A DNA stretch of 64,000 bases from Bacteriovoracia bacterium (GTDB lineage: Bacteria; Bdellovibrionota; UBA1018; CAIPTA01): NCBI GenBank assembly GCA_050246755.1, contig JBFWVL010000002.1, forward strand, positions 320,001-384,000, in the 5' to 3' direction. Position numbers and translations under genes: made by a program. How positions within the stretch are numbered: the stretch's first letter is position 1; each line of letters begins with the position of its first letter. Below are positions 42,566 through 55,476 of the stretch, piece by piece. Under the pieces are notes generated by a model that had not been told where the DNA came from, did no database searches, and worked only from the letters and a program-made list of their open reading frames with translations.

Positions 42566-43374
42566 ATCACATTCTTCGTGCGGGCCGCATCGCAGGCTTC
42601 ATGCAAAAATTGCATCGCCGCCATTTCCGCACGGCGATGGCGCTGAAGTTTGGGCGTAGCTAAGGCCTCCCGTAAGTCCAAGTAGAGCTTGGCGCTCGCG
42701 CGCAAAGCTTTTTCGCAGCTTTCGGGATCATCCGATTTAGCGAGCGTAGCGCGCAGTTCCGGGAGAATTTCGCTACAGCTTTCTTCCAGGCGGCGCACGC
42801 CGTAGGGCGGCTGCCCGCATTTTTGCAAAAGCAACGGCCCGAGCACGGTACTGCGCAAAAAGGCCACGAAGTTAATCGTCTCAAAAAATTCACCCCGCCC
42901 GATTTTCAGGCCGGCGTAGTGCATCCAGGTCCAGAATCGATCTTCCATCCATTGCAAATCCACGGAAACGGGCTGGGGGTCGGACGCCGCCAAAATATTC
43001 GAAAGAATATTCTTTCTCTCCCAAAGGATTGCTGGGTTTTCAGCGCGCTGATGAAACTGGCTTTCCGAAACAAATTTAAGATCCACGTGCAGCAAGGGAT
43101 TTTCGAACAGGCAGATGAGCAGGGTAGGCTCGCCCACGTGCTCAGCGGTAAAGGAAGACAAAAGCGTGCCGAGGGAGGAGGCCGTTTCCTTAGCTTGCCG
43201 GACGCTATCTTTAAAATTTTCATCCCTGACTACCAGCACGAGATCGAGATCGGAAAAAACATCAAGCTTACCGATGGCCCAAGAGCCGGCGGCGGCCACC
43301 CCGAGAATACGATCGTCTTGCTGCAAAATCGGCAAGGCCTGGTCCACAAATTTTTGATGCGTCGCGGGAATCAT
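42547..43374 (-). CDS. Nucleotidyltransferase (ANT(6)/Lnu-like)
   Basis: GSWA....D.FSDLD NTase motif, LHVDLKF, and a helical C-terminal domain with DRFW; GAGGAG RBS. Confidence 0.7.
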   Translation of the reverse strand: MIPATHQKFVDQALPILQQDDRILGVAAAGSWAIGKLDVFSDLDLVLVVRDENFKDSVRQAKETASSLGTLLSSFTAEHVGEPTLLICLFENPLLHVDLKFVSESQFHQRAENPAILWERKNILSNILAASDPQPVSVDLQWMEDRFWTWMHYAGLKIGRGEFFETINFVAFLRSTVLGPLLLQKCGQPPYGVRRLEESCSEILPELRATLAKSDDPESCEKALRASAKLYLDLREALATPKLQRHRRAEMAAMQFLHEACDAARTKNVIQFRHS

Positions 43375-43564
43375 TATTCTCCTCGGCTGAATTCTACTAT
43401 CGGGCGCAAAAAAGCGCCCTGAGTCAAATAGGCGCAATTTTTCCTGGCTCAAATACCTTCGAGTAGGGAGTGAATTGTAGCGAAAAGGTACTTATTTTTA
43501 TAAATTTTTTTCGTTTCGCCCCCCGCATTTGCACAAATTGCCCAAGGTAAATACACTAGAACGC

Positions 43565-44719
43565 ATGAAAGCAATCTTCCGTTTTTTAGCCGTGATGGCC
43601 GTTATCTTTGGCGTAGCCATTGTTTGGAAAGCAGATCGCCGCAAACCAATCGATTTACTCTCCCAAACCTCGGGAAATAAGAAAAAGACGGATAGGCCGG
43701 AAGAGACGATGCAGTTGGCTTTCACGCAGCCTTTCCGCACGCCGATGGTGGAAGGATGGTCGAAAGAAAAATTTCAGGCAGACCTCGAGGAAGCTTTTTC
43801 TAATGAGGATCCCTGTGCCGTGCATGCACTCCTAGCTCAACTCAAAGACGCTCCGCCCGCGCAATTTTGGGCGGCGGGAATGGCTGCTCTTTTGGCCCGG
43901 CAGCGCAACCGCAACCCTTTGCTGGAAGAGCTTTTTGCCTTTGAACAATCTCCGCTTTACGGGAAACCGGCGGAAAATTCTCGAAACCCAGAAACTCGTT
44001 TTTTTAACTCCTTGCTCTACTCGGGAATGCTTACCCCAGTGGCCAGTCTTGGTCCCAAGCCCGAACGCTACCGAAACTACGATAAAGCCATCGGTGAGCT
44101 CCGGGAATTGGCTCAGCAAGATCCAGAAAACGGAGCCTACGCCTACTATTTGGCCGAGAGCCTAAAACGCAGCGGCGCCAAGAAAGAGGAAGTGCAAGCG
44201 GCATTTATTCAGGCAGGCAAAGCGGCCCGTTTCAATACTTATTATCAGACCGCCTACGACACCTTGCTGTCTACATCCTACGACAACGCCGCGGCCTTCA
44301 CGTGGGTTTATAGCTTTCTGCCCACCATGGCGGTGCCCGAATTTAATACGCGTTCCCTAAAAAACTGGGCCAGCGAAAACGAAACCGGAAAATGGATCGC
44401 GCAAAAAATCGCCAAAAAACTTTCCGATATCGGCACCGAATATAAGCAGAAAAGCCCGGGTTATTATTATTCCCACGTCGAATACATGGTGGGCCAAAAC
44501 CTAAAACACACGCTCAGCGGCCTAGTAGACAAAGATCGCGAAGAGTTTTTTAAGAAAACCAAAGAAGCCCAAGAATATATTTCGGAACAGCCGGCCGCCG
44601 TGACGGACGCCGAAACGGCGATTTACATGAGCATGATAGAGGAGCGGCAAAGCTGCAGTACGGAATCTTGGCGCTCGCTGTTCGAAACGTACCGGCAAAA
44701 AGCGAAGGGCCATAGCTAA
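43565..44719 (+). CDS. Membrane-anchored hypothetical protein with a TPR-like repeat
   Basis: N-terminal TM segment; YDKAI..L......DPENG.Y.YYLA resembles a TPR. Confidence 0.55.
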   Translation: MKAIFRFLAVMAVIFGVAIVWKADRRKPIDLLSQTSGNKKKTDRPEETMQLAFTQPFRTPMVEGWSKEKFQADLEEAFSNEDPCAVHALLAQLKDAPPAQFWAAGMAALLARQRNRNPLLEELFAFEQSPLYGKPAENSRNPETRFFNSLLYSGMLTPVASLGPKPERYRNYDKAIGELRELAQQDPENGAYAYYLAESLKRSGAKKEEVQAAFIQAGKAARFNTYYQTAYDTLLSTSYDNAAAFTWVYSFLPTMAVPEFNTRSLKNWASENETGKWIAQKIAKKLSDIGTEYKQKSPGYYYSHVEYMVGQNLKHTLSGLVDKDREEFFKKTKEAQEYISEQPAAVTDAETAIYMSMIEERQSCSTESWRSLFETYRQKAKGHS

Positions 44720-44997
44720 CCCGCCCTGGATTGCGCTGGCTGAGATTCCGCCCCCGCTACTTCGTATAGATAAAGCTCCCGCATGCCCCGTTCCCCGGGA
44801 TCGCGGTATACTAGCAACGTTTCCCGGGAAGAGGTTTCTATCCGGAAGAATTGGCGGTTACCCGCCGATCTTTCCTCGAGCGAAAGAGGCCCATATACTC
44901 CCAGCATTTGCCACGATCCCAAAGGCGAAGAGAGCCGCGCTCCTTTGCGTTTCAAGGGCACCGCCCCCGAAAGAGACTGGATAAATTCTTTCATCAC
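44716..44997 (-). CDS. Stand-alone ImuB C-terminal-like domain protein
   Basis: Aligns by eye with the C-terminus of ImuB in this window (SW..L...GP...R.(F/Y)F.(I/V).T...E.L.V.R...EL.L). Confidence 0.65.
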   Translation of the reverse strand: MMKEFIQSLSGAVPLKRKGARLSSPLGSWQMLGVYGPLSLEERSAGNRQFFRIETSSRETLLVYRDPGERGMRELYLYEVAGAESQPAQSRAG

Positions 44998-45494
44998 GTG
45001 AACCTCCGGCGTAAAAGTTCCAGGCCATTCTTTCCCGCAAGCAGCTGAACGCTAAACAATGTGGAGGGAGTAGGGCGTTCGCTGATCACTAAGAAAGTTG
45101 CGTTGGTGGCTTTTGCCTGGCGGAGGTAACGGCGCAATTCGCGTTCGTTACTATAGCCCGCACCGAAAACCACGAGCGGGAATAGGCCGGTGGTGAGTAC
45201 CGCCGATGCCGCCCAGGAGGAATCTTGATCGCCATGCACGAAGAGCACGCGCTCAAAATTCAGGCGTATGCACTCGAGCTCGGGCGGCAGGGGAGCCAAG
45301 CTACGTTCGATCCATACCACGGCCTGGTCTGGATTCTGCGCTAGCAAAGCCGCCACTGCGCGCCGGGCGCTAGGCCCGGAAATCTCCACCAGCGCCCCCC
45401 GTGGTAAATCCACGAAGGTCTCCGTTTCAGTTCGGACAAAAGTATCCCGCTGCGCCTCAATAGGCGCAAAATTCTCGTGAAGAGACATATTCAC
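44994..45494 (-). CDS. ImuA-like (truncated RecA-fold) protein, copy 1
   Basis: LPRGALVEISG, WIE, PP.L, LFPLVV and LRR; paralog of 54860..55366. Confidence 0.72.
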   Translation of the reverse strand: MNMSLHENFAPIEAQRDTFVRTETETFVDLPRGALVEISGPSARRAVAALLAQNPDQAVVWIERSLAPLPPELECIRLNFERVLFVHGDQDSSWAASAVLTTGLFPLVVFGAGYSNERELRRYLRQAKATNATFLVISERPTPSTLFSVQLLAGKNGLELLRRRFT

Positions 45495-45522
45495 ATCCTT
45501 GTTACGTATATTTAACTAGGTA

Positions 45523-46122
45523 TCAGTATTTATGATTAAGGTTGCGCAACACTCCGGTGAGTATGCCCTCGATGCGTAATTGCACCGGGGGCATAATCAC
45601 CAGAGGAGCGTACTTCGGGTTGGCTGCATGAAGTTCTACTCGGTTCTTTTTGCGCTGTAAGCGCTTAAGAGTGGCCTGGCCTTCTACCGAGGCCACCACG
45701 ATCGTGCCGTCGTCGGCATGATCTTGTTTCCGAATCACGGCGTAATCGCCATCGAGAATTCCCGCTTCGATCATCGAATCCCCGGCCACCATCAGGCAGA
45801 AATGCTCGCGGTCGATTTGCACGAAGGAGGAGGGAACCTCCACGAACTCCTGGTGCAGGTGGTATTCGATCGGCTGCCCGGCGGCTACTTTTCCTAAAAG
45901 GGGTAAGTGAATCCCAGATTGCTTCACCGAAACACCACGCTTGGAGTTAGCGTCCATATCGAGGAAGCCAGCATCGCGAAGGCGCTCCACGTATTTCTGC
46001 GCCGTGGATCGGGAGCTGAGGTTGAAGGCATCAGCGATCTCCTGGTAGGAAGGCGAGTAGCCATTCTCCTGAATAAAACGCTGAAGGAACTCGAGAACGT
46101 TTTTCTGTTTGGGAGTGAGCAT
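45523..46122 (-). CDS. lexA: SOS repressor LexA
   Basis: MLTPKQ..VL.F, GYSPSYQEI, VAAG cleavage site, GDSM and TLKR catalytic motifs. Confidence 0.96.
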   Translation of the reverse strand: MLTPKQKNVLEFLQRFIQENGYSPSYQEIADAFNLSSRSTAQKYVERLRDAGFLDMDANSKRGVSVKQSGIHLPLLGKVAAGQPIEYHLHQEFVEVPSSFVQIDREHFCLMVAGDSMIEAGILDGDYAVIRKQDHADDGTIVVASVEGQATLKRLQRKKNRVELHAANPKYAPLVIMPPVQLRIEGILTGVLRNLNHKY

Positions 46123-46128
46123 AAAATA

Positions 46129-46179
46129 AAGGTAAGCGTACATTCGTCGTACGTCAAGCGGATAGTACATTTTTCGTGC
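46129..46179 (-). promoter_or_regulatory. lexA promoter with two candidate LexA boxes
   Basis: TTGACG-N17-TACCTT. GTAC-N7-GTAC at 46138-46152 and GTAC-N7-GTGC at 46165-46179. Confidence 0.7.
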
Positions 46180-46192
46180 AGCCGATTCCAGG

Positions 46193-47104
46193 TTAAGCGG
46201 CTAACCCATGAAGATAAAACGTTTTCTCAATGGAACGAAGCAGCAAAAGAAGCGATTCCGGGCTCGATTTTTGGGGACTGAGCCAATTTTTTAGCTGCTC
46301 CTGTTTCAAAAAAACTGGGCAGCGATCATGGCCGGCAGCGGCCACCTCGGCCGGCGGATTATCGGTCACCATGGCGAACGAGCTGATGGCCCCATCGTTT
46401 CCACTCGGAGAAACGGAAAAAAGACCGGCGGCCCACATCACCTCGCGATTTTCTGGCGCAAAATAGATTTCTTCTTTTTTGCCGTGCGCGGAAACCCACT
46501 CGTAGAAGCGCTGAAAAGGAAAAATCAGGTGATTCTTTCCGAAAAGGGGGCGCCAAGTTTTAGCGCTCAGGAGCGAATCGTGTCTGGCATTAAATACATT
46601 ATATTGACTAGGAATCTCGCTGCCGTCGGGATTTTGCACCCGAAAGCGCATGGGCCGTAAAAATCGCTTTCCGGCCTCCTCCACGATCACGGGGGCGAAG
46701 TAGGAGGGGAAGATACGATCGTCGAGCGGATCGATTCGATCGAAGGAGGCTCGAATCTTCCCGTCCAATTTCACGATGCGCCGCTGCAGCACGCCGATTT
46801 TCTTCGCGCCCGTGGCGCTAGGCTTTTTGCTCTCCAGCGCGCGCAGCTCGTGCACGGCGGCCCTCAGCGCAATCTCGTTGCGCGACTTCTCTTCGGCGTG
46901 AAAAGCCGAAATAAACGGCGATAGCCTGGCTTCCGCCGGATCCTGGCTCAGCAAAAAATAACGATCCAGCCCGAAGGGCACTCTTAGCTGCGGGCTAGAT
47001 AGGCGCTGGCGGAGAAGGCTTTCAAAACTGCTTAGGTCGGTTTGCGCCTGGAACTCTCCGGCTATTTCCTTAAGCGAAGTTTTAATGCGAGTTGAGTAGC
47101 ACAT
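46193..47104 (-). CDS. SOS response-associated peptidase (SRAP/HMCES family)
   Basis: N-terminal MCYS (catalytic Cys2); FNAR.D, FYEW and GHDRCPV motifs. Confidence 0.9.
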   Translation of the reverse strand: MCYSTRIKTSLKEIAGEFQAQTDLSSFESLLRQRLSSPQLRVPFGLDRYFLLSQDPAEARLSPFISAFHAEEKSRNEIALRAAVHELRALESKKPSATGAKKIGVLQRRIVKLDGKIRASFDRIDPLDDRIFPSYFAPVIVEEAGKRFLRPMRFRVQNPDGSEIPSQYNVFNARHDSLLSAKTWRPLFGKNHLIFPFQRFYEWVSAHGKKEEIYFAPENREVMWAAGLFSVSPSGNDGAISSFAMVTDNPPAEVAAAGHDRCPVFLKQEQLKNWLSPQKSSPESLLLLLRSIEKTFYLHGLAA

Positions 47105-47150
47105 GCCCGCGAGAGTAACGCCAATCCGTTTTTTCTGCTATCGTGTTCTG

Positions 47151-47783
47151 GTGGAAATAAAGCGCGATAATGTGATCACCCTGAACAACGCTAAGCTCTC
47201 GCGCTTCCTCGGCCGCGCCGCCGAGTTTCACCGCAACCGCGACTACCAAATTTCTCTGCGCGCCATCGCCGACGCGGGAAAATTGCTGGACGCCCAAAAT
47301 AGCGAAGCCCATAAATTTTTAATTTCCTGGGAAGAAGCCATCGAGCGGGAAAGTAGGGGATTGCCCCTTAGCGCCCCGCCCACCTCGTGGGGAAAAATCG
47401 CCAGGGAAATCGGGGCGTGCCTGGAGCGCAATGAAAACTTCGACGACTGCATTCTCCAGCAGACCCACCAGCCCAAGCGCATTCTTCTGCAAAGATATGG
47501 CTTCGGCCTCTTAGGCGCGCTTCTATTTGTCATTGGCTTTACCGCGCTGGCATTCGTTCTTCGGGGTGTTTTTTTCCGCTTCGACAATGGCTACCGCTTG
47601 GCCCAGTTGCCTTTTTTCCGGCAGGGAATCTGGCTTTACTTTCATGCCCTCGCCACCGCCATTTCGGGAGGGGCGCTGGCGGCGCTTGGATTTCGCTGGA
47701 TTCGTTTTGCCTGCCATAGCCGCGCCTCCCTAAAACCAAAGATGGAGCTGCGGCCCCTCGAATCAGACCAAAAAAGTTTTTAA
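47151..47783 (+). CDS. Hypothetical membrane protein
   Basis: Two C-terminal TM segments. Start is uncertain (the ORF-track start overlaps SRAP). Confidence 0.45.
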   Translation: MEIKRDNVITLNNAKLSRFLGRAAEFHRNRDYQISLRAIADAGKLLDAQNSEAHKFLISWEEAIERESRGLPLSAPPTSWGKIAREIGACLERNENFDDCILQQTHQPKRILLQRYGFGLLGALLFVIGFTALAFVLRGVFFRFDNGYRLAQLPFFRQGIWLYFHALATAISGGALAALGFRWIRFACHSRASLKPKMELRPLESDQKSF

Positions 47784-47845
47784 AATCTTATCTCCTTTCT
47801 GCGCCTACACGCTTTCTGGGGGGCATTCTGGGCTACAATTTACCC

Positions 47846-48271
47846 ATGAAGACCCTCCTCTATTTGTTCGTTTTCCTGGCGGGGACTGCCAGGGCCGAAC
47901 CGGAGCCGAATTTTCAGTTTTCGTACGTGCCCAACGAAGGCGCGGAAGGGGTAGCGTGCGCCCACGAAAGAATCCGCGATCTTCCCGACTGGCGCGTGGC
48001 CTGCCCATTTTTCGGGGAAGAAAAACGATTCACCGCCCACGTTCTGCTAAGAAACTTTCCGTCCCAGAAAAAAAGTGCGGTGGAGCTGCTATATTGGGTT
48101 ACCGAGGCCGCGGACGCACCGGGATCCTCCCCGAAATTTCACGCTACGAGCGCTCTGCTTAAGCTGAAGGGGGAAACCGCTCTGGATTCCCTCTCGCTGG
48201 CCCAGGGCGTGGAGAACGACTATGCCTCCCTCGTGCTCGACGCCTCACTGGAAGCCAAGGGAAAGAAATAG
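47846..48271 (+). CDS. Secreted hypothetical protein
   Basis: Signal peptide ending ARA, two Cys, beta-rich pattern. Confidence 0.6.
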   Translation: MKTLLYLFVFLAGTARAEPEPNFQFSYVPNEGAEGVACAHERIRDLPDWRVACPFFGEEKRFTAHVLLRNFPSQKKSAVELLYWVTEAADAPGSSPKFHATSALLKLKGETALDSLSLAQGVENDYASLVLDASLEAKGKK

Positions 48272-50548: not shown

Positions 50549-53500
50549 TTAGAAAGAGTGAAAGTATTGAGTAGGCTCGATCACCAGGCGCGCTTGCTCG
50601 CGGTCTTTGCTCTCGGGCCATACGCTCTTCACGTCGGCCACCCATACGCTATAGGAATTGGTTTCTCGCTGGAGCTTGCCGGTCACCACGAGAAAGCAAT
50701 TATCCAAAAAAGCATCCTTTACTCTTTCCCAGATATCAGGGGCGATCGCGATATCCAGAAAGCCGAACTCGTCCTCGAGAGTGCCGAAGGTCATGCCTTT
50801 CGCGGTGGGCGGCTGCTGGCGCACCAGTAATAAACCCGAAAATTTCACCTGCGTCCCGGGGCGCTGGAGCTTGGCGGTCTGGGTATTCAGCTTGGGCAGG
50901 GGCAATATTTTCCGCAGCGCCATCATGGGATGCCCGTGCGTGGAGAGCGAAAATGCATCATATTCTTCGAGAATTTTTTCGTAATCGCCGAGGGCATGGA
51001 ATTTTGCCCCGCTTTCCTCCACATAACCGGAATCGAGGAATAAATCTCCCTGCACGCGGTCGCGGCGGCGCTGAAACTCGAGCACCTGCCAAAGCGCTTC
51101 GCGCGGAGGAAAGCCGAAGCATTCGAATGTCCCCCCCATGGCCAAACGCAGGAGCGCGTCTCGCCGCACAGGGGCGCGCTTAAGAAAATCCGCCAAGCCG
51201 GTAAAAGGGCGGAGGCTAAGGATTTTTTCGGCTTCCTCCCGGTGCATTCCCTTCACCATTTTCCAGCCTAAGCGCAGCGCACCGTTTTCGATGGTACTTT
51301 CCCAGGCGGAAGCATTCAAATGCACGGGCAATACCGTTACCCCCTGAAGCTTGGCGCTATCCACCAGGGTATGGGGAGAGTAAAATCCCATGGGCTGGGA
51401 GTTCAAAAGCCCGCAGGTGAATTCGGCGGGATGATGGCACTTTAAATAACAGGAAACATACGCCAAGAGCGCGAAGCTCGCCGCGTGGCTTTCCGGAAAA
51501 CCGTACTGCGCAAAGCCTTGGATCTGCTGAAAGATGCGGTCGCAAAACTCCTCCGATAAACCATTTTTTTTAAAGCCATCCTTTAAGCGCTGGCCCATCT
51601 TCGTGATCGATCCTTCGGAACGCCAGGCCGCGATGGCGCGCCGAAGCTCATCGGCTTCGCCGGGAGTAAAGCCACCGAGCTCTACCGCCATCTTCATCAC
51701 TTGTTCCTGGAAAAGCGGTACGCCGAGAGTTCGCCCCAAAATCGCGCGCAGGGCCGGGTGAGGGTAGTCTTCCTTTTCTTCTTTGCGGCGCCGGCGTAAA
51801 TAGGGGTGCACCATTTTTCCCACGATGGGTCCCGGCCTCACGATCGCCACCTGGATCACCAGATCGTAAAATTTCTCCGGCAACAGCCTGCCCAGCATCG
51901 ACATTTGCGCGCGGCTTTCAACCTGAAAGGTACCCACCGTATCGGCCATCTGGATCATCTTATAGGTTTTCGGGCATTCCTTGGGGAGCAAGTGCATTTC
52001 CGTTTTCACGAGCTTCAGGGTGCGCTGGATCGCGGTAAGCATCCCGAGCGAGAGCAAATCTACTTTTAGGAGGCCGAGAAAATCTAGGTCGTATTTATCC
52101 CACTGGATGATGGTACGGTTCTCCATCCTCGCCGGCTCGATGGGCACGATCTCGATCAAGGGATCGGCCGAAAGGGTGAACCCCCCGCTGTGGATCGAAA
52201 GATGGCGCGGGAAGCCCGCCATTTCCTCCGAAAGCGCTTCCAGTAATTTCCTGGGCTCCTTAGTTTCGGTGTTCTGGGCGCGCTCGTCGAAAAACTTATT
52301 GAGCTTCTTGGCCGAGAGCGTCCCCACGTCGATGCCGAGAGCTTTGGCCAGTTCCCGGAAAGCCGAACGCCGGCGGTAGGTGATCACCGCACTCACCATG
52401 CCGGCGCGATCGCGCCCGTAACGCTCGTAAACGTACTGCAAAACTTCTTCACGTCTTTCGTGCTCGAAATCCACGTCGATATCGGGTGGCTCGTTCCGTT
52501 CCTCCGAGATAAAGCGCTCAAACAGCAAATTCATGTGAACGGGATCGATCGCGGTGATGCCGAGACAATAGCAAACCACGCTATTGGCGGCAGCACCCCG
52601 GCCCTGGCAGAGAATGTCTTTGGAGCGCGCAAATGCCACGATATCGTTAATGGTGAGAAAATAATCGGGAAAGCCAAGTTTCTCGATCAGGCGAAGCTCA
52701 TGTTTCATCTGCGCGCTCACGGCATCTGGTATCCCATTGGGATATCGCTCTTGCGCTCCCTTCCGGGTGAGATGCTCGAGGTAGGACTGCGCCGTATGCG
52801 ATTGCGGAATCCATTCCGAGGGATAACGGTATTTCAACTCCGAAGGGCAAAAGGTGCATTGTCCGGCGATTTCAATCGTGGCCTCGACGGCTTCCGGCAG
52901 ATCCGAAAAAAGTGCCCGCATTTCGGCGCAGGACTTCAGCCTCCTTTCGCCGTTGGGGAAAAGCTTATGCCCTAATTTCTGCAAAGACGCATTCTCGCGC
53001 ACGGCGGTGAGCGCGTCCTGAAGGGGCTGCCGCGCGCTCTCGTGGTAGTGCACGTCGTTCGTGGCTACGATGGGCACGCTCCAGCGGTCGCGTATCCAGA
53101 TGGCTTTTTCGGTATTTTCTTTTTCGAATCCATCGCGTAACCGATGGAGGGTCACGTAGAGGCGGGAAAAGAGTGGGCGCAGCCGTAAAAAATCCGCCGT
53201 GAGCGGAGCCAAGGCGAATAAACCTTCCGCCGCCTCCGGAAATGCATTCAGCAGCGCGCGCAATTCTTCGAAACGCAGCGCGGCCTTTCCTTTCTCCTTT
53301 CCGGCATGGCTGGCGGTGAGGATACGGCAAAGCAAGCCATAAGCCTTACGGTCACGGGCGAGAAGAGTGAGCCGCGACGAATTTTCCAGGGAGAGGCTGG
53401 CTCCCGATATCAATTTTAGGTCGGGGTATTTCTTTTTTTCCCAGAATGCTTTCGGGATGCCGTACACGCCGTCGAAATCGTTCAGCGCAATGGCGGATAA

Positions 53501-53593
53501 GCCGAGCTCCGCCGCTTTAATGATCAGCTCCTCCGGAGAGGAAGCTCCGCGCAGAAAAGAAAAATTCGTCTTTACCTCGAGCTCGGCGTACAT
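50549..53593 (-). CDS. dnaE2: Error-prone DNA polymerase DnaE2/ImuC
   Basis: YAEL...NFSFLRGAS, PPDIDVDFEHERREEV, FPRHLSIHSGG, YGFPESHA and NSQPMGFY motifs. Start overlaps the imuB stop. Confidence 0.96.
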   Translation of the reverse strand: MYAELEVKTNFSFLRGASSPEELIIKAAELGLSAIALNDFDGVYGIPKAFWEKKKYPDLKLISGASLSLENSSRLTLLARDRKAYGLLCRILTASHAGKEKGKAALRFEELRALLNAFPEAAEGLFALAPLTADFLRLRPLFSRLYVTLHRLRDGFEKENTEKAIWIRDRWSVPIVATNDVHYHESARQPLQDALTAVRENASLQKLGHKLFPNGERRLKSCAEMRALFSDLPEAVEATIEIAGQCTFCPSELKYRYPSEWIPQSHTAQSYLEHLTRKGAQERYPNGIPDAVSAQMKHELRLIEKLGFPDYFLTINDIVAFARSKDILCQGRGAAANSVVCYCLGITAIDPVHMNLLFERFISEERNEPPDIDVDFEHERREEVLQYVYERYGRDRAGMVSAVITYRRRSAFRELAKALGIDVGTLSAKKLNKFFDERAQNTETKEPRKLLEALSEEMAGFPRHLSIHSGGFTLSADPLIEIVPIEPARMENRTIIQWDKYDLDFLGLLKVDLLSLGMLTAIQRTLKLVKTEMHLLPKECPKTYKMIQMADTVGTFQVESRAQMSMLGRLLPEKFYDLVIQVAIVRPGPIVGKMVHPYLRRRRKEEKEDYPHPALRAILGRTLGVPLFQEQVMKMAVELGGFTPGEADELRRAIAAWRSEGSITKMGQRLKDGFKKNGLSEEFCDRIFQQIQGFAQYGFPESHAASFALLAYVSCYLKCHHPAEFTCGLLNSQPMGFYSPHTLVDSAKLQGVTVLPVHLNASAWESTIENGALRLGWKMVKGMHREEAEKILSLRPFTGLADFLKRAPVRRDALLRLAMGGTFECFGFPPREALWQVLEFQRRRDRVQGDLFLDSGYVEESGAKFHALGDYEKILEEYDAFSLSTHGHPMMALRKILPLPKLNTQTAKLQRPGTQVKFSGLLLVRQQPPTAKGMTFGTLEDEFGFLDIAIAPDIWERVKDAFLDNCFLVVTGKLQRETNSYSVWVADVKSVWPESKDREQARLVIEPTQYFHSF

Positions 53594-54858
53594 CAGTCGA
53601 AAATCCCGTGCAAAAAAAGCTCGGTCTCGTTGAAATGGCGGAATACCCATAGCCGTTCTCCCGCCAAAGTATCCACACAAAAATACTCCCGGGAAAATCC
53701 CCCGAGCCACCATTCTCCGCGCAACTTCTCCGGCCCCTCAAAAGCCAGGATCCCCCAAGAACGATTCTGGCAACGCAAAAAATTTCCGTCGCGGCGGATC
53801 GGAAGGGGCTTAGCCAATAAGCGCAGAGGGCGTAACGGCACATGGGGCAAGAGCTCGCCTTTCCCGGGTTCCAGCGATTTTTTCCAGGCCGCTTCGGGTA
53901 ATAAACGAGGGGAGGGCGCCGCCAGAAAAGCCGCATTTTCACCCAGCCTTTCGCTCAGTCTGGCCACGAGCGAAGCCCAGGCTTCTTTTTCTTCTTCTAC
54001 TTTGGAAAAAAAGTCTCGCTGTGCATTGCGGAAGGGGGCCGTTTCGATAATTTCGATCGCAACCTCTTCCAGCGCATCTTCTAGCGGCCGGCTTTCCAGC
54101 TCCTTGGCGATTCTATCCTGCAAAAACTGCAGTACTCCTTTCGGATCCGATTGGGGCAAGGGCAGCCTCACTTCCAGCAGACGCTCGCGGGATCCGTTAC
54201 GCGCCAGGCGGTTGAGCCGAAAACGCAATCGAAATGCCATTAGCATCTCGGCCCTCGCGAAAAGGCGGATAAATACGCGGTCGATCAATCCTTTGAGAAT
54301 AAAGAAAATAGGCTCGAGATTTTCGATCTGGGCCGCGAAATCCAGCTCCGTTTTCTCTTCGATTTTTGCGGAAGGCACGAATCGGGGCCAGGCGATACGT
54401 TTAGCCTCGAACACCTTAGCGTATGCCCGCGCGCCCTCCTTGCCGAAACGTGCCGGGATTTCCTTAAGCGGTACGGCCAAAAATTCACCCAGAGTTTTTA
54501 TGCCAAGCTTGCGCAGGATGGCACCCGGGGAAAAATCGCTGGGCGTAAACGGAGAAAGATAATCGCGAAGAGCATCCACGGGCAGATTTTCCCGCGCGGT
54601 AATTCCGTAGCGCGCAAAGGCCAGCGAAGAAGGTAAATCACCGGCGCTGCTGATCGTGGCGGCGAGCTGGAAAGCGCCGAGGATTTCTTGCAGCCTCGCA
54701 AAACATTGCTCGAGAGAAAAAAGCCCTAGGGAACCAGAAACCTCCACGAAAACCGCTTCGTGGGATACGGCTACTTGCGGGCTAAACGCCAAGCAGGCCT
54801 CCGCCAAGGCCGGAAGCCGGGAAAAATTTTCGCGCAGCAGGAGGCAAACCACCACCAT
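53593..54858 (-). CDS. imuB: ImuB (inactive Y-family polymerase)
   Basis: FSP.V, LGIKTLG and RFG motifs, clamp-binding motif QRDFF, C-terminal GPE.L..EWW...REYF...LFLHGIFD. Confidence 0.9.
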   Translation of the reverse strand: MVVVCLLLRENFSRLPALAEACLAFSPQVAVSHEAVFVEVSGSLGLFSLEQCFARLQEILGAFQLAATISSAGDLPSSLAFARYGITARENLPVDALRDYLSPFTPSDFSPGAILRKLGIKTLGEFLAVPLKEIPARFGKEGARAYAKVFEAKRIAWPRFVPSAKIEEKTELDFAAQIENLEPIFFILKGLIDRVFIRLFARAEMLMAFRLRFRLNRLARNGSRERLLEVRLPLPQSDPKGVLQFLQDRIAKELESRPLEDALEEVAIEIIETAPFRNAQRDFFSKVEEEKEAWASLVARLSERLGENAAFLAAPSPRLLPEAAWKKSLEPGKGELLPHVPLRPLRLLAKPLPIRRDGNFLRCQNRSWGILAFEGPEKLRGEWWLGGFSREYFCVDTLAGERLWVFRHFNETELFLHGIFD

Positions 54859-54859
54859 T

Positions 54860-55366
54860 TCACTTTTGCCGCAGAACGAAGAGCTTCCGTTCGCGCACCT
54901 CCAGCGAAAGGGCGATCGGCCAGGCGGCGAGGGGTTTTTTTCGCGCCAAGAGAATTACGGTGGCCTCGGCCTTTTCGGCCAATAGCTGAAAGCGCCTCAA
55001 CTGCCGCTCGTCCTCGCGGTAGGGCGCGTGGAATACGAGGATCGGGAATAAGCGGCTGCGGAGGATGGTGGCCGCGGCCCACGCCGCATCCTTTCCAGCC
55101 TCAACAAAAAATGTGTTCTCGAGCTTTCTCTTTCTCTGAAAGAGGGCGGGCGGATAGAGGGAAAATTCACTCTCGATCCAGGCGGCCGGTACCTCGGAAT
55201 TCTCCGCGAGAAAATGCGCCACGTTCTCGGTTTTCCCCTGACCCGAAACTTCCACCAGCACGCCTTTCGGCAAGCCTCCCGCCAAAAGCGAGTAAGGATG
55301 GGTTTCGCTGCGGGAGAGTTTCTTGAGGGCGCCGATGCGCGCGCGCAGCTCTTGTAGAGCGGACAT
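54860..55366 (-). CDS. imuA: ImuA-like protein, copy 2
   Basis: GGLPKGVLVEVSGQGKT, YPPAL and LRRFQL.AEK motifs. First gene of the imuA-imuB-dnaE2 cassette; GGAG RBS before 55366. Confidence 0.8.
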   Translation of the reverse strand: MSALQELRARIGALKKLSRSETHPYSLLAGGLPKGVLVEVSGQGKTENVAHFLAENSEVPAAWIESEFSLYPPALFQRKRKLENTFFVEAGKDAAWAAATILRSRLFPILVFHAPYREDERQLRRFQLLAEKAEATVILLARKKPLAAWPIALSLEVRERKLFVLRQK

Positions 55367-55446
55367 CCAGTCTCCAGCGCCCAATGGGGGCGAATTAAGT
55401 GGGTGATAAGCAGAGGGATCCATTCGCAGCGATGAACCACCCCTTA

Positions 55447-55476
55447 AGCATAATAGTACATTTGTAGTACAGTCAA
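55447..55476 (-). promoter_or_regulatory. imuA-imuB-dnaE2 promoter with a candidate LexA box
   Basis: TTGACT-N18-TATGCT with GTAC-N7-GTAC (55456-55470) in the spacer. Confidence 0.7.

Follow-up and report, generated by a model that had tools for sequence, protein, structure and literature searches.

The lexA gene of an uncultured Bacteriovoracia bacterium (Bdellovibrionota; GenBank assembly GCA_050246755.1, contig JBFWVL010000002.1) is followed by two small genes related to the parts of a mutagenesis cassette: imuA′, which encodes an ImuA paralog without a P-loop, and imuB-C′, which encodes a standalone and remodelled version of the ImuB C-terminal domain. Both small genes are real and are under purifying selection. 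They lie in a 64,000-nucleotide window (positions 320,001 to 384,000 of the forward strand of the contig) that also carries a separate and complete imuA-imuB-dnaE2 cassette approximately 9 kb away, with the cassette imuB about 8.6 kb from imuB-C′. We see an even chance that the locus as a whole is explained as a trimmed operon, preceded by a putative SOS box, whose two small proteins form a modulator or adaptor that acts in trans and has no catalytic role. The mechanistic part of this explanation, in which the pair would have a target beyond DnaE2, is offered with low confidence.

The arrangement of the three genes is compact. LexA appears to be encoded by a single gene in the source genome (G000), as only one was found there, and approximately 34 nucleotides separate it from imuA′. 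The TGA stop codon of imuA′ and the GTG start codon of imuB-C′ overlap as GTGA, with an ATG codon next and a GGAGG sequence just upstream. The same gene order is present in all five of the other genomes of the genus (G001 to G005; higher numbers, from G006 onward, denote genomes of other genera), in which the stop and start codons overlap as ATGA and are again preceded by a GGAGG-like Shine-Dalgarno sequence. A search with the single protein recovered the small gene in six of 41 related genomes, namely G000 and all five other species of the genus, and in none of the 35 genomes outside the genus. A search of metagenome contigs with a closer alignment of the family gave three loci, of which the sole relevant one, on a JGI contig (L077), has all three genes in this order, joined by a GTGA overlap. 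In protein databases the small family comprises 79 members of 57–128 amino acids at E≤1e-3, and those that are named derive from ‘Bdellovibrionota bacterium’ assemblies. A preliminary description of this locus, made from the DNA alone, had portrayed the two genes as intact, diverged from their paralogs, linked to lexA and translationally coupled, and it had proposed that their conservation and the ratio of nonsynonymous to synonymous substitution rates (dN/dS) be checked in relatives; the portrayal is borne out by the shared overlaps and by the comparisons that follow.

Within the genus, both proteins are only 31–50% identical, versus 82–89% for LexA. Synonymous sites are saturated between species, yet both frames remain open in all six genomes. 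The proportion of nonsynonymous differences (pN) is smaller than that of synonymous differences (pS) in 15 of 15 genome pairs for each gene, and dN/dS ranges from 0.15 to 0.48 in those pairs for which dS could be estimated. Because no estimate of dS was possible for nine of the 15 pairs with the small gene and eight of the 15 with imuA′, differences at the strain level were used instead. A contig from sequencing run X3 spans positions 44600–46300 of the window and is 97.4% identical to it; the two sequences differ at 44 sites and show no insertions or deletions. Among the 40 differences listed, all 11 in the small gene are synonymous (one converts the TAG stop codon to TAA), as are eight of nine in imuA′ (the remaining one being C75R) and all 15 in lexA. 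The purifying selection evident for both genes argues against recent decay, as had been supposed from the intact frames.

These data also bear on the idea that the two frames are a functionless remnant of a deletion that simply rides on the lexA transcript. The fast evolution of both proteins relative to LexA is what such a remnant would display, and sister genera indeed carry different stumps of the same operon (see below). However, frames that stay open over saturated synonymous divergence in six of six genomes, listed strain differences that are synonymous in 11 of 11 and eight of nine instances, 11 invariant residues over 45 family members, and a conserved start/stop overlap with its Shine-Dalgarno sequence bring this proposal close to refutation, and we find it scarcely believable.

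By sequence homology, imuB-C′ belongs to the ImuB-C superfamily. Its protein aligns with residues 345–417 of the 421-residue cassette ImuB (32% identity, E 3e-6 by BLASTP), as expected from the earlier suggestion that this 93-amino-acid frame corresponds to the last ~80 residues of ImuB. When a profile of 45 family members is aligned by hhalign with the C-termini of 21 ImuB proteins encoded elsewhere in the phylum, the probability is 98.95% (E 9.7e-18). The family profile also matches the C-terminal end of the cassette ImuB (E 2.0e-9) and the C-terminal ends of open frames of 234–605 amino acids in other genomes of the phylum, with E values for ImuB C-terminal ends of 7.3e-10 to 8.9e-5, and four of the six best ImuB matches of the small-family hidden Markov model are the ImuBs of the genus itself. 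When 1.84 billion representative proteins were searched, the profile matched 44 at E≤1e-3. The 30 matches at E≤1e-10 are all family members of 65–119 amino acids. Eight of the weaker 14 are proteins of 408–459 amino acids that are matched at their C-terminal ends, and five of the other six were inspected and carry canonical ImuB-C motifs, with several resembling fragments.

General-purpose domain models are less informative for this family. Pfam DUF6504 (PF20114) scores imuB-C′ at 15.6 bits (E 0.02), short of the gathering cut-off of 24.2, and it matches four of the 45 family members at E≤1; the same model passes its own cut-off in one of 14 control genomes. An AF2 model of imuB-C′ has six beta strands with a predicted local distance difference test score (pLDDT) of 76.8, in agreement with a small, mostly beta-strand ImuB-C domain. 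No convincing fold relative of imuB-C′ was found in the PDB (the best Foldseek match has E 0.9, with none at E≤1e-3, and the best VIA-align match has Z 5.5, which is within noise), and a PDB sequence search returned nothing meaningful for either the ImuB or the small-family profile. The portion of PMC12926913 available to us likewise portrays ImuB-C as a beta-barrel without close PDB relatives.

The residues conserved in the small family are in part those of ImuB-C and in part its own. R16, G18, W28 and R64 are kept from ImuB-C, and the 11 columns that are invariant across the 45 aligned members include a family-specific G-M-R within GERGMR. The LWV[FY] strand of ImuB C-termini is mostly LLV in the small family, and the conserved tryptophan or tryptophans of the superfamily (PMC3765255) could not be mapped onto a specific residue from the text of that paper. 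The N-terminus of the small protein coincides with the ImuB-C boundary (near ImuB residue 345), and about 340 imuB codons are not represented. In the cassette ImuB, a clamp-binding motif (QRDFF) and a RecA-NT helix were placed by eye at residues ~278–322. Therefore, imuB-C′ lacks the clamp-binding and RecA-NT region.

The gene between lexA and imuB-C′ encodes an ImuA. Its product is 33% identical to the cassette ImuA over 150 amino acids (E 7e-21), has a RecA-core fold, is encoded between lexA and an imuB-derived gene, and nests phylogenetically with ImuA proteins. An AF2 model of ImuA′ (pLDDT 82.3) was compared with the PDB by Foldseek, and the best 50 matches are all RecA (TMq 0.58–0.67). 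The NCBIfam model ImuA_translesion (NF033429) matches ImuA′ with E 1.6e-6 and 28.1 bits, less than its equivalog cut-off of 150. However, the ImuA of the G000 cassette falls under this cut-off as well (49.9 bits), and thus the model is ill suited to judging ImuA proteins of this phylum. The reported loss of the Walker-A lysine is real: ImuA′ carries SGPSARR where the cassette ImuA has SGQGKT, and a G-K-[TS] P-loop is present in none of seven lexA-linked ImuA paralogs versus 14 of the 24 cassette ImuAs that cover the region.

The likely ancestry of the unit can be read from related loci. LexA genes adjoin imuA at 15 of 21 ImuA loci in the other genera of the class; in 12 of these loci lexA is co-directional and directly upstream, and imuB lies downstream in 11 of those 12. 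In G006, G024 and G032, no lexA other than the imuA-linked one was found. A maximum-likelihood tree was prepared from 32 ImuA sequences (20 from other genera, five from cassettes of the genus, six ImuA′ proteins and the copy from G007, a member of a sister genus). The 20 sequences from other genera are separated from the remaining 12 with 100/100 support, and the six ImuA′ proteins (G000 to G005) form a clade with the lexA-linked copy of G007, also with 100/100 support, although the bootstrap had not fully settled and the G001 and G007 copies occupy long branches (3.25 for G007). If the root lies among the other genera, imuA′ and the cassette imuA of the genus are lineage-specific duplicates.

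The sister genera carry shortened versions of this operon. G007 has lexA-imuA′ only, with no small open reading frame, whereas in G008 lexA is followed by a frame of 184 amino acids (L081 2171–2725) that corresponds to ImuB residues 1–160 (38% identity, E 8e-29). The two genera belong to the same family as the present one, and their loci are different stumps of one operon. Most simply, the unit can be read as a lexA-proximal copy of the cassette that would have been trimmed after duplication and then fixed and kept in the genus. An ancestral lexA, the only one in its genome, would have been the first gene of a lexA-imuA-imuB-dnaE2 operon, an arrangement that most related genera still have, and the imuA-imuB-dnaE2 part would have been duplicated in the ancestor of the genus. 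The lexA-proximal copy would then have been cut to imuA and the last ~80 codons of imuB, leaving the intact copy with its own box approximately 9 kb away.

An alternative would place the pair away from polymerases, with ImuA′ serving as a SulA-like protein or a modulator of RecA and imuB-C′ as its adaptor. Operons of lexA and sulA exist in Pseudomonas, and ImuA′ is a 164-amino-acid RecA-core protein without a P-loop that is encoded right behind lexA. ImuA has been termed ‘related to SulA’ (PMC3765255), and Myxococcus ImuA is cited as binding RecA (PMC11791113), in the portions of these papers accessible to us. Retention of imuA′ alone in G007 would also fit, but that copy, on its very long branch, may be decaying. 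No Pfam SulA match to ImuA′ was found at E≤1, SulA is absent from the 50 best fold matches, and the protein is an ImuA by descent. We consider this alternative distinctly improbable.

Both the trimmed operon and the intact cassette appear to be under common SOS control. An exact GTAC-N7-GTAC box occurs twice in the window, where 0.07 occurrences would be expected, once upstream of lexA and once upstream of the cassette imuA. Genome-wide there are 14 exact matches, and an AT-rich spacer ending in AATGTAC is present in only three of these, which are the ones mapped to genes; the third lies ~140 nucleotides upstream of recA (G000 C3:252712). The extended form of the box that precedes lexA, imuA and recA is GTACnAnnAATGTAC. 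Because the same box is found ahead of lexA, the cassette and recA, we infer that the lexA operon and the cassette would be damage-induced together. Among the relatives, exact boxes precede lexA in G002, G003 (two), G004, G005, G006, G007 (two) and G022, and the cassette imuA in G001 and G003 (two), while no exact box was detected at the G001 lexA or at the G004 cassette locus. A consensus promoter scan of positions 44400–47400 predicted no promoters, and the TTGAC beside each box was assigned by eye. With its conservation in several genera of the class, GTAC-N7-GTAC is a candidate LexA operator for this Bdellovibrionota lineage. The box of Bdellovibrio bacteriovorus (TTAC-N3-GTAA) is unlike this one.

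The composition of the unit constrains what the pair could do. The preliminary description called it a ‘mini-mutasome’, and although its sequence observations stand, as does its view of the genes as intact and selected paralogs, this name is a misnomer. The pair cannot be a mutasome because the unit encodes no polymerase (neither DnaE2 nor a Y-family, ImuB-type polymerase-like body) and no clamp/RecA-NT linker. DNA damage would de-repress the operon, and coupled translation would yield both small proteins together, in step with LexA. Most likely the pair would then modulate damage-tolerance proteins in trans, or serve as an adaptor for them, without a catalytic role of its own, making contact via surfaces descended from the junction of ImuA, ImuB-C and the PHP domain of DnaE.

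We propose that the target of the pair extends beyond the DnaE2 cassette, given that one relative, G002, has retained the pair but not the cassette. In this genome of the same genus (96% complete, 50 contigs), no DnaE2, cassette ImuA or ImuB C-terminal end was found, and the only related frame is DnaE1-like (645 bits versus a cut-off of 939). Its lexA-imuA′-imuB-C′ unit nevertheless retains every residue that is invariant in the family, and the contig shares with the neighbourhood in the window only lexA, imuA′, the small open reading frame and the convergent gene downstream. ImuB also contacts DnaE1, according to yeast two-hybrid data cited in the available portion of PMC11791113. DinB, considered as a partner, is present as one plain copy per genome in G000, G002, G003, G004, G005 and G007. 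No link between DinB and the pair was found, and the G000 dinB has neither a C-terminal extension nor an exact box in the 690 nucleotides upstream.

A more specific proposal, akin to the decoy or modulator of DnaE2 mutagenesis raised in the preliminary description, is that ImuA′ and imuB-C′ compete with ImuA and ImuB for DnaE2 and, with no clamp tether, limit SOS mutagenesis. The pair does descend from the two modules that sit against the PHP domain of DnaE2 in AlphaFold models (PMC12926913, in the portion accessible to us), and the same type of box precedes both operons. Furthermore, cassette and small gene occur together in five of the six genomes of the genus (G000, G001, G003, G004 and G005, where the part scored in G003 is the cassette imuA-imuB), and the two loci are syntenic at ~9–10 kb from each other in G000, G003 and G005. 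However, the unit of G002 is intact and conserved although no DnaE2, ImuA or ImuB was found there, and imuA′ likewise persists in G007, where no DnaE2 was found. The 21 ImuB C-termini share a GEWW loop and a terminal LHG[YF]FD; both are gone from the small family, in which GERGMR is newly invariant, whereas a decoy would be expected to retain its binding surface. The G002 data in particular weaken the case for a DnaE2-specific decoy or brake, and we judge it unlikely.

A bolder variant would make the pair an SOS-induced polymerase-docking module without a polymerase. The RecA-core protein and the ImuB-C barrel would together dock onto the PHP domain of DnaE-type polymerases, with the replicative DnaE1 among them where DnaE2 has been lost, and would thereby slow or re-route replication after damage. 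If true, mutasome parts would here form an SOS checkpoint of a new kind, but we hold this to be improbable.

Several observations weigh against our preferred explanation, a trans-acting modulator or adaptor with a target beyond DnaE2. The family is narrow, with standalone matches restricted to this genus among the sampled genomes of the phylum. The ImuA tree is unrooted, and the duplication scenario assumes a root among the other genera. Likewise, the absence of the cassette from G002 rests on one draft genome that is 96% complete. Loss of the P-loop is also seen in several ordinary cassette ImuAs, and therefore is not diagnostic of a new role. With the loss of GEWW and LHG[YF]FD from the small family, the surfaces for ancestral partners may be gone, and a complex between ImuA′ and imuB-C′ is not assured without the RecA-NT region. 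A structure prediction for this complex scored 0.00 versus a mark of 0.32, which gives no answer and carries no weight either way.

The unit is related to known systems, and it differs from each of them. The lexA-imuA-imuB-dnaE2 cassette (as presented in the accessible parts of PMC3765255 and PMC8072749) is the same operon by descent, with lexA, imuA, an imuB-derived gene with a coupled start and an SOS box upstream. In the unit described here, however, the ~340 imuB codons for the Y-family-like body and linker as well as all of dnaE2 are absent, and a separate complete cassette is encoded at a distance of 9 kb. The preliminary description did not mention that lexA operons with a standalone ImuB-C protein have already been described (PMC3765255, PMC6511836). 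Examples in the consulted portions of PMC3765255, PMC6511836, PMC8072749 and PMC12926913 are lexA-imuB-C-polY of Geobacter, imuY-imuB-C-dnaE2 of Deinococcus and Kyrpidia, and DnaE2-[ImuB-C] of Actinobacteria. As with imuB-C′, the published proteins are free domains of ~80–100 amino acids in a lexA-linked damage-response context, with a gene for an SOS response associated peptidase (SRAP) nearby (PMC3765255, same portion). Their partners are polymerases (PolY and/or DnaE2), whereas the partner here is an ImuA paralog and the operon carries no polymerase. According to the accessible part of PMC6511836, imuA is absent from standalone ImuB-C operons and from the genomes that carry them. G000, in contrast, also encodes a full ImuA-ImuB-DnaE2 set. 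Moreover, imuB-C′ is a secondary derivative of ImuB that has lost GEWW and LHG[YF]FD and falls under the DUF6504 cut-off.

The mycobacterial ImuA′-ImuB system offers a further comparison, again from the accessible portion of the source (PMC11791113). It too combines a RecA-like subunit without a P-loop with an ImuB-C domain. RecA-NT is the critical contact between ImuA′ and ImuB in mycobacteria, and ImuB-C stabilises the binding of ImuA′. The mycobacterial RecA-NT lies upstream of ImuB-C, whereas imuB-C′ begins after that region. In the literature as far as it was accessible, we found no pair of an ImuA paralog with a standalone ImuB-C, though the supplementary tables of PMC6511836 and PMC12926913 could list one, and no polymerase-less operon of this kind or one that coexists with a full cassette. 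What is new here is the pairing of an ImuA paralog with a standalone ImuB-C, which so far is confined to one genus-level lineage of uncultured Bdellovibrionota.

Of the modules of the ImuABC mutasome, ImuB-C is the one least understood, and current models propose it as the docking point for DnaE2, to judge from the accessible parts of these papers. The pair is a natural separation-of-function construct in that ImuA and ImuB-C are present without the clamp tether, the RecA-NT region or a polymerase, and selection has kept it for a long time, including in one genome with no DnaE2 found. Its binding partners could reveal the role of ImuB-C itself and whether trimmed mutasome parts tune mutagenesis. 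The general reach of such findings is limited by a narrow family in uncultured bacteria. The analysis also yields GTAC-N7-GTAC as a putative LexA operator for this lineage.

Features of the lexA operon, the intact cassette and adjacent genes, in coordinates of the window
Feature	Position	Strand	Remarks
lexA	45523..46122	-	199 aa from ATG at 46122; TIGR00498 lexA E 1.2e-53; Pfam LexA_DNA_bind + Peptidase_S24
imuA′ (ImuA paralog without P-loop)	44994..45488	-	164 aa from ATG; alternative GTG start at 45494
imuB-C′ (standalone, remodelled ImuB C-terminal domain protein)	44716..44997	-	93 aa from GTG; 92 aa from ATG at 44994
GTAC-N7-GTAC box, putative LexA operator of lexA operon	46138..46152		Upstream of lexA ATG; TTGAC abuts at 46153-46157, transcribed strand
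Second GTAC-N7-GTAC box	55456..55470		Upstream of cassette imuA; context TTGACT-box-TATTAT
Cassette imuA	54860..55423	-	187 aa, with SGQGKT; NF033429 E 3.4e-13
Cassette imuB	53593..54858	-	421 aa, between imuA and dnaE2; own ImuB-C domain
dnaE2	50549..53713 (longest open reading frame)	-	NF004225 error-prone DNA polymerase, 1176 bits (cut-off 939); match starts at residue 41
SRAP gene	46193..47104	-	Directly upstream of lexA; Pfam SRAP E 2.2e-27
Convergent 396-aa gene	43529..44719	+	Stop overlaps imuB-C′ stop by 4 nt; only a weak TPR match

Three of the gene calls required choices between start codons. The longest open reading frame for lexA spans 45523–46170, and the operator-like box sits within this longer frame, and therefore the true start is most likely the ATG at 46122 (MLTPKQ...). 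For imuA′, the ATG at 45488 is the start used by relatives in the databases. The longest frame of dnaE2 runs 120 nucleotides into the 3′ end of imuB, and thus its true start is probably near 53590. No Pfam match, including IMS, was obtained for the cassette ImuB at E≤0.1, and this protein is a reduced form of ImuB.

The gene downstream of the unit, convergent with it, has homologs that adjoin the unit in G002 to G005 and in G007 (by tblastn), and a convergent frame of 392 amino acids is present in a similar place in G001 (matched by position only, with homology not compared). Its product has a hydrophobic N-terminus. A weak terminator-like hairpin is present at 44722–44707, although eight such sites were found in 44400–47400 versus 5.0 expected. 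No Rfam family was detected in 43000–48000. In runs X2 and X8, peaks in contig depth (123 to 244) at window positions 45740–45796, which correspond to the conserved S24-peptidase core of lexA, are an artefact of a conserved motif to which many short pieces of other organisms align, and are not a feature of the genome.

The SRAP gene upstream is outside the conserved core of the unit. It is syntenic in G003 (57.6% identity), and was not found adjoining the unit in G002 or in the visible flank of G001. Its product, a protein of 303 amino acids, begins with MC, and the Pfam match starts only at residue 131, aligned with profile position 35. An insertion of ~100 amino acids after the N-terminal cysteine is therefore suggested. 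A second SRAP paralog, with 39% identity, is encoded on contig C5.

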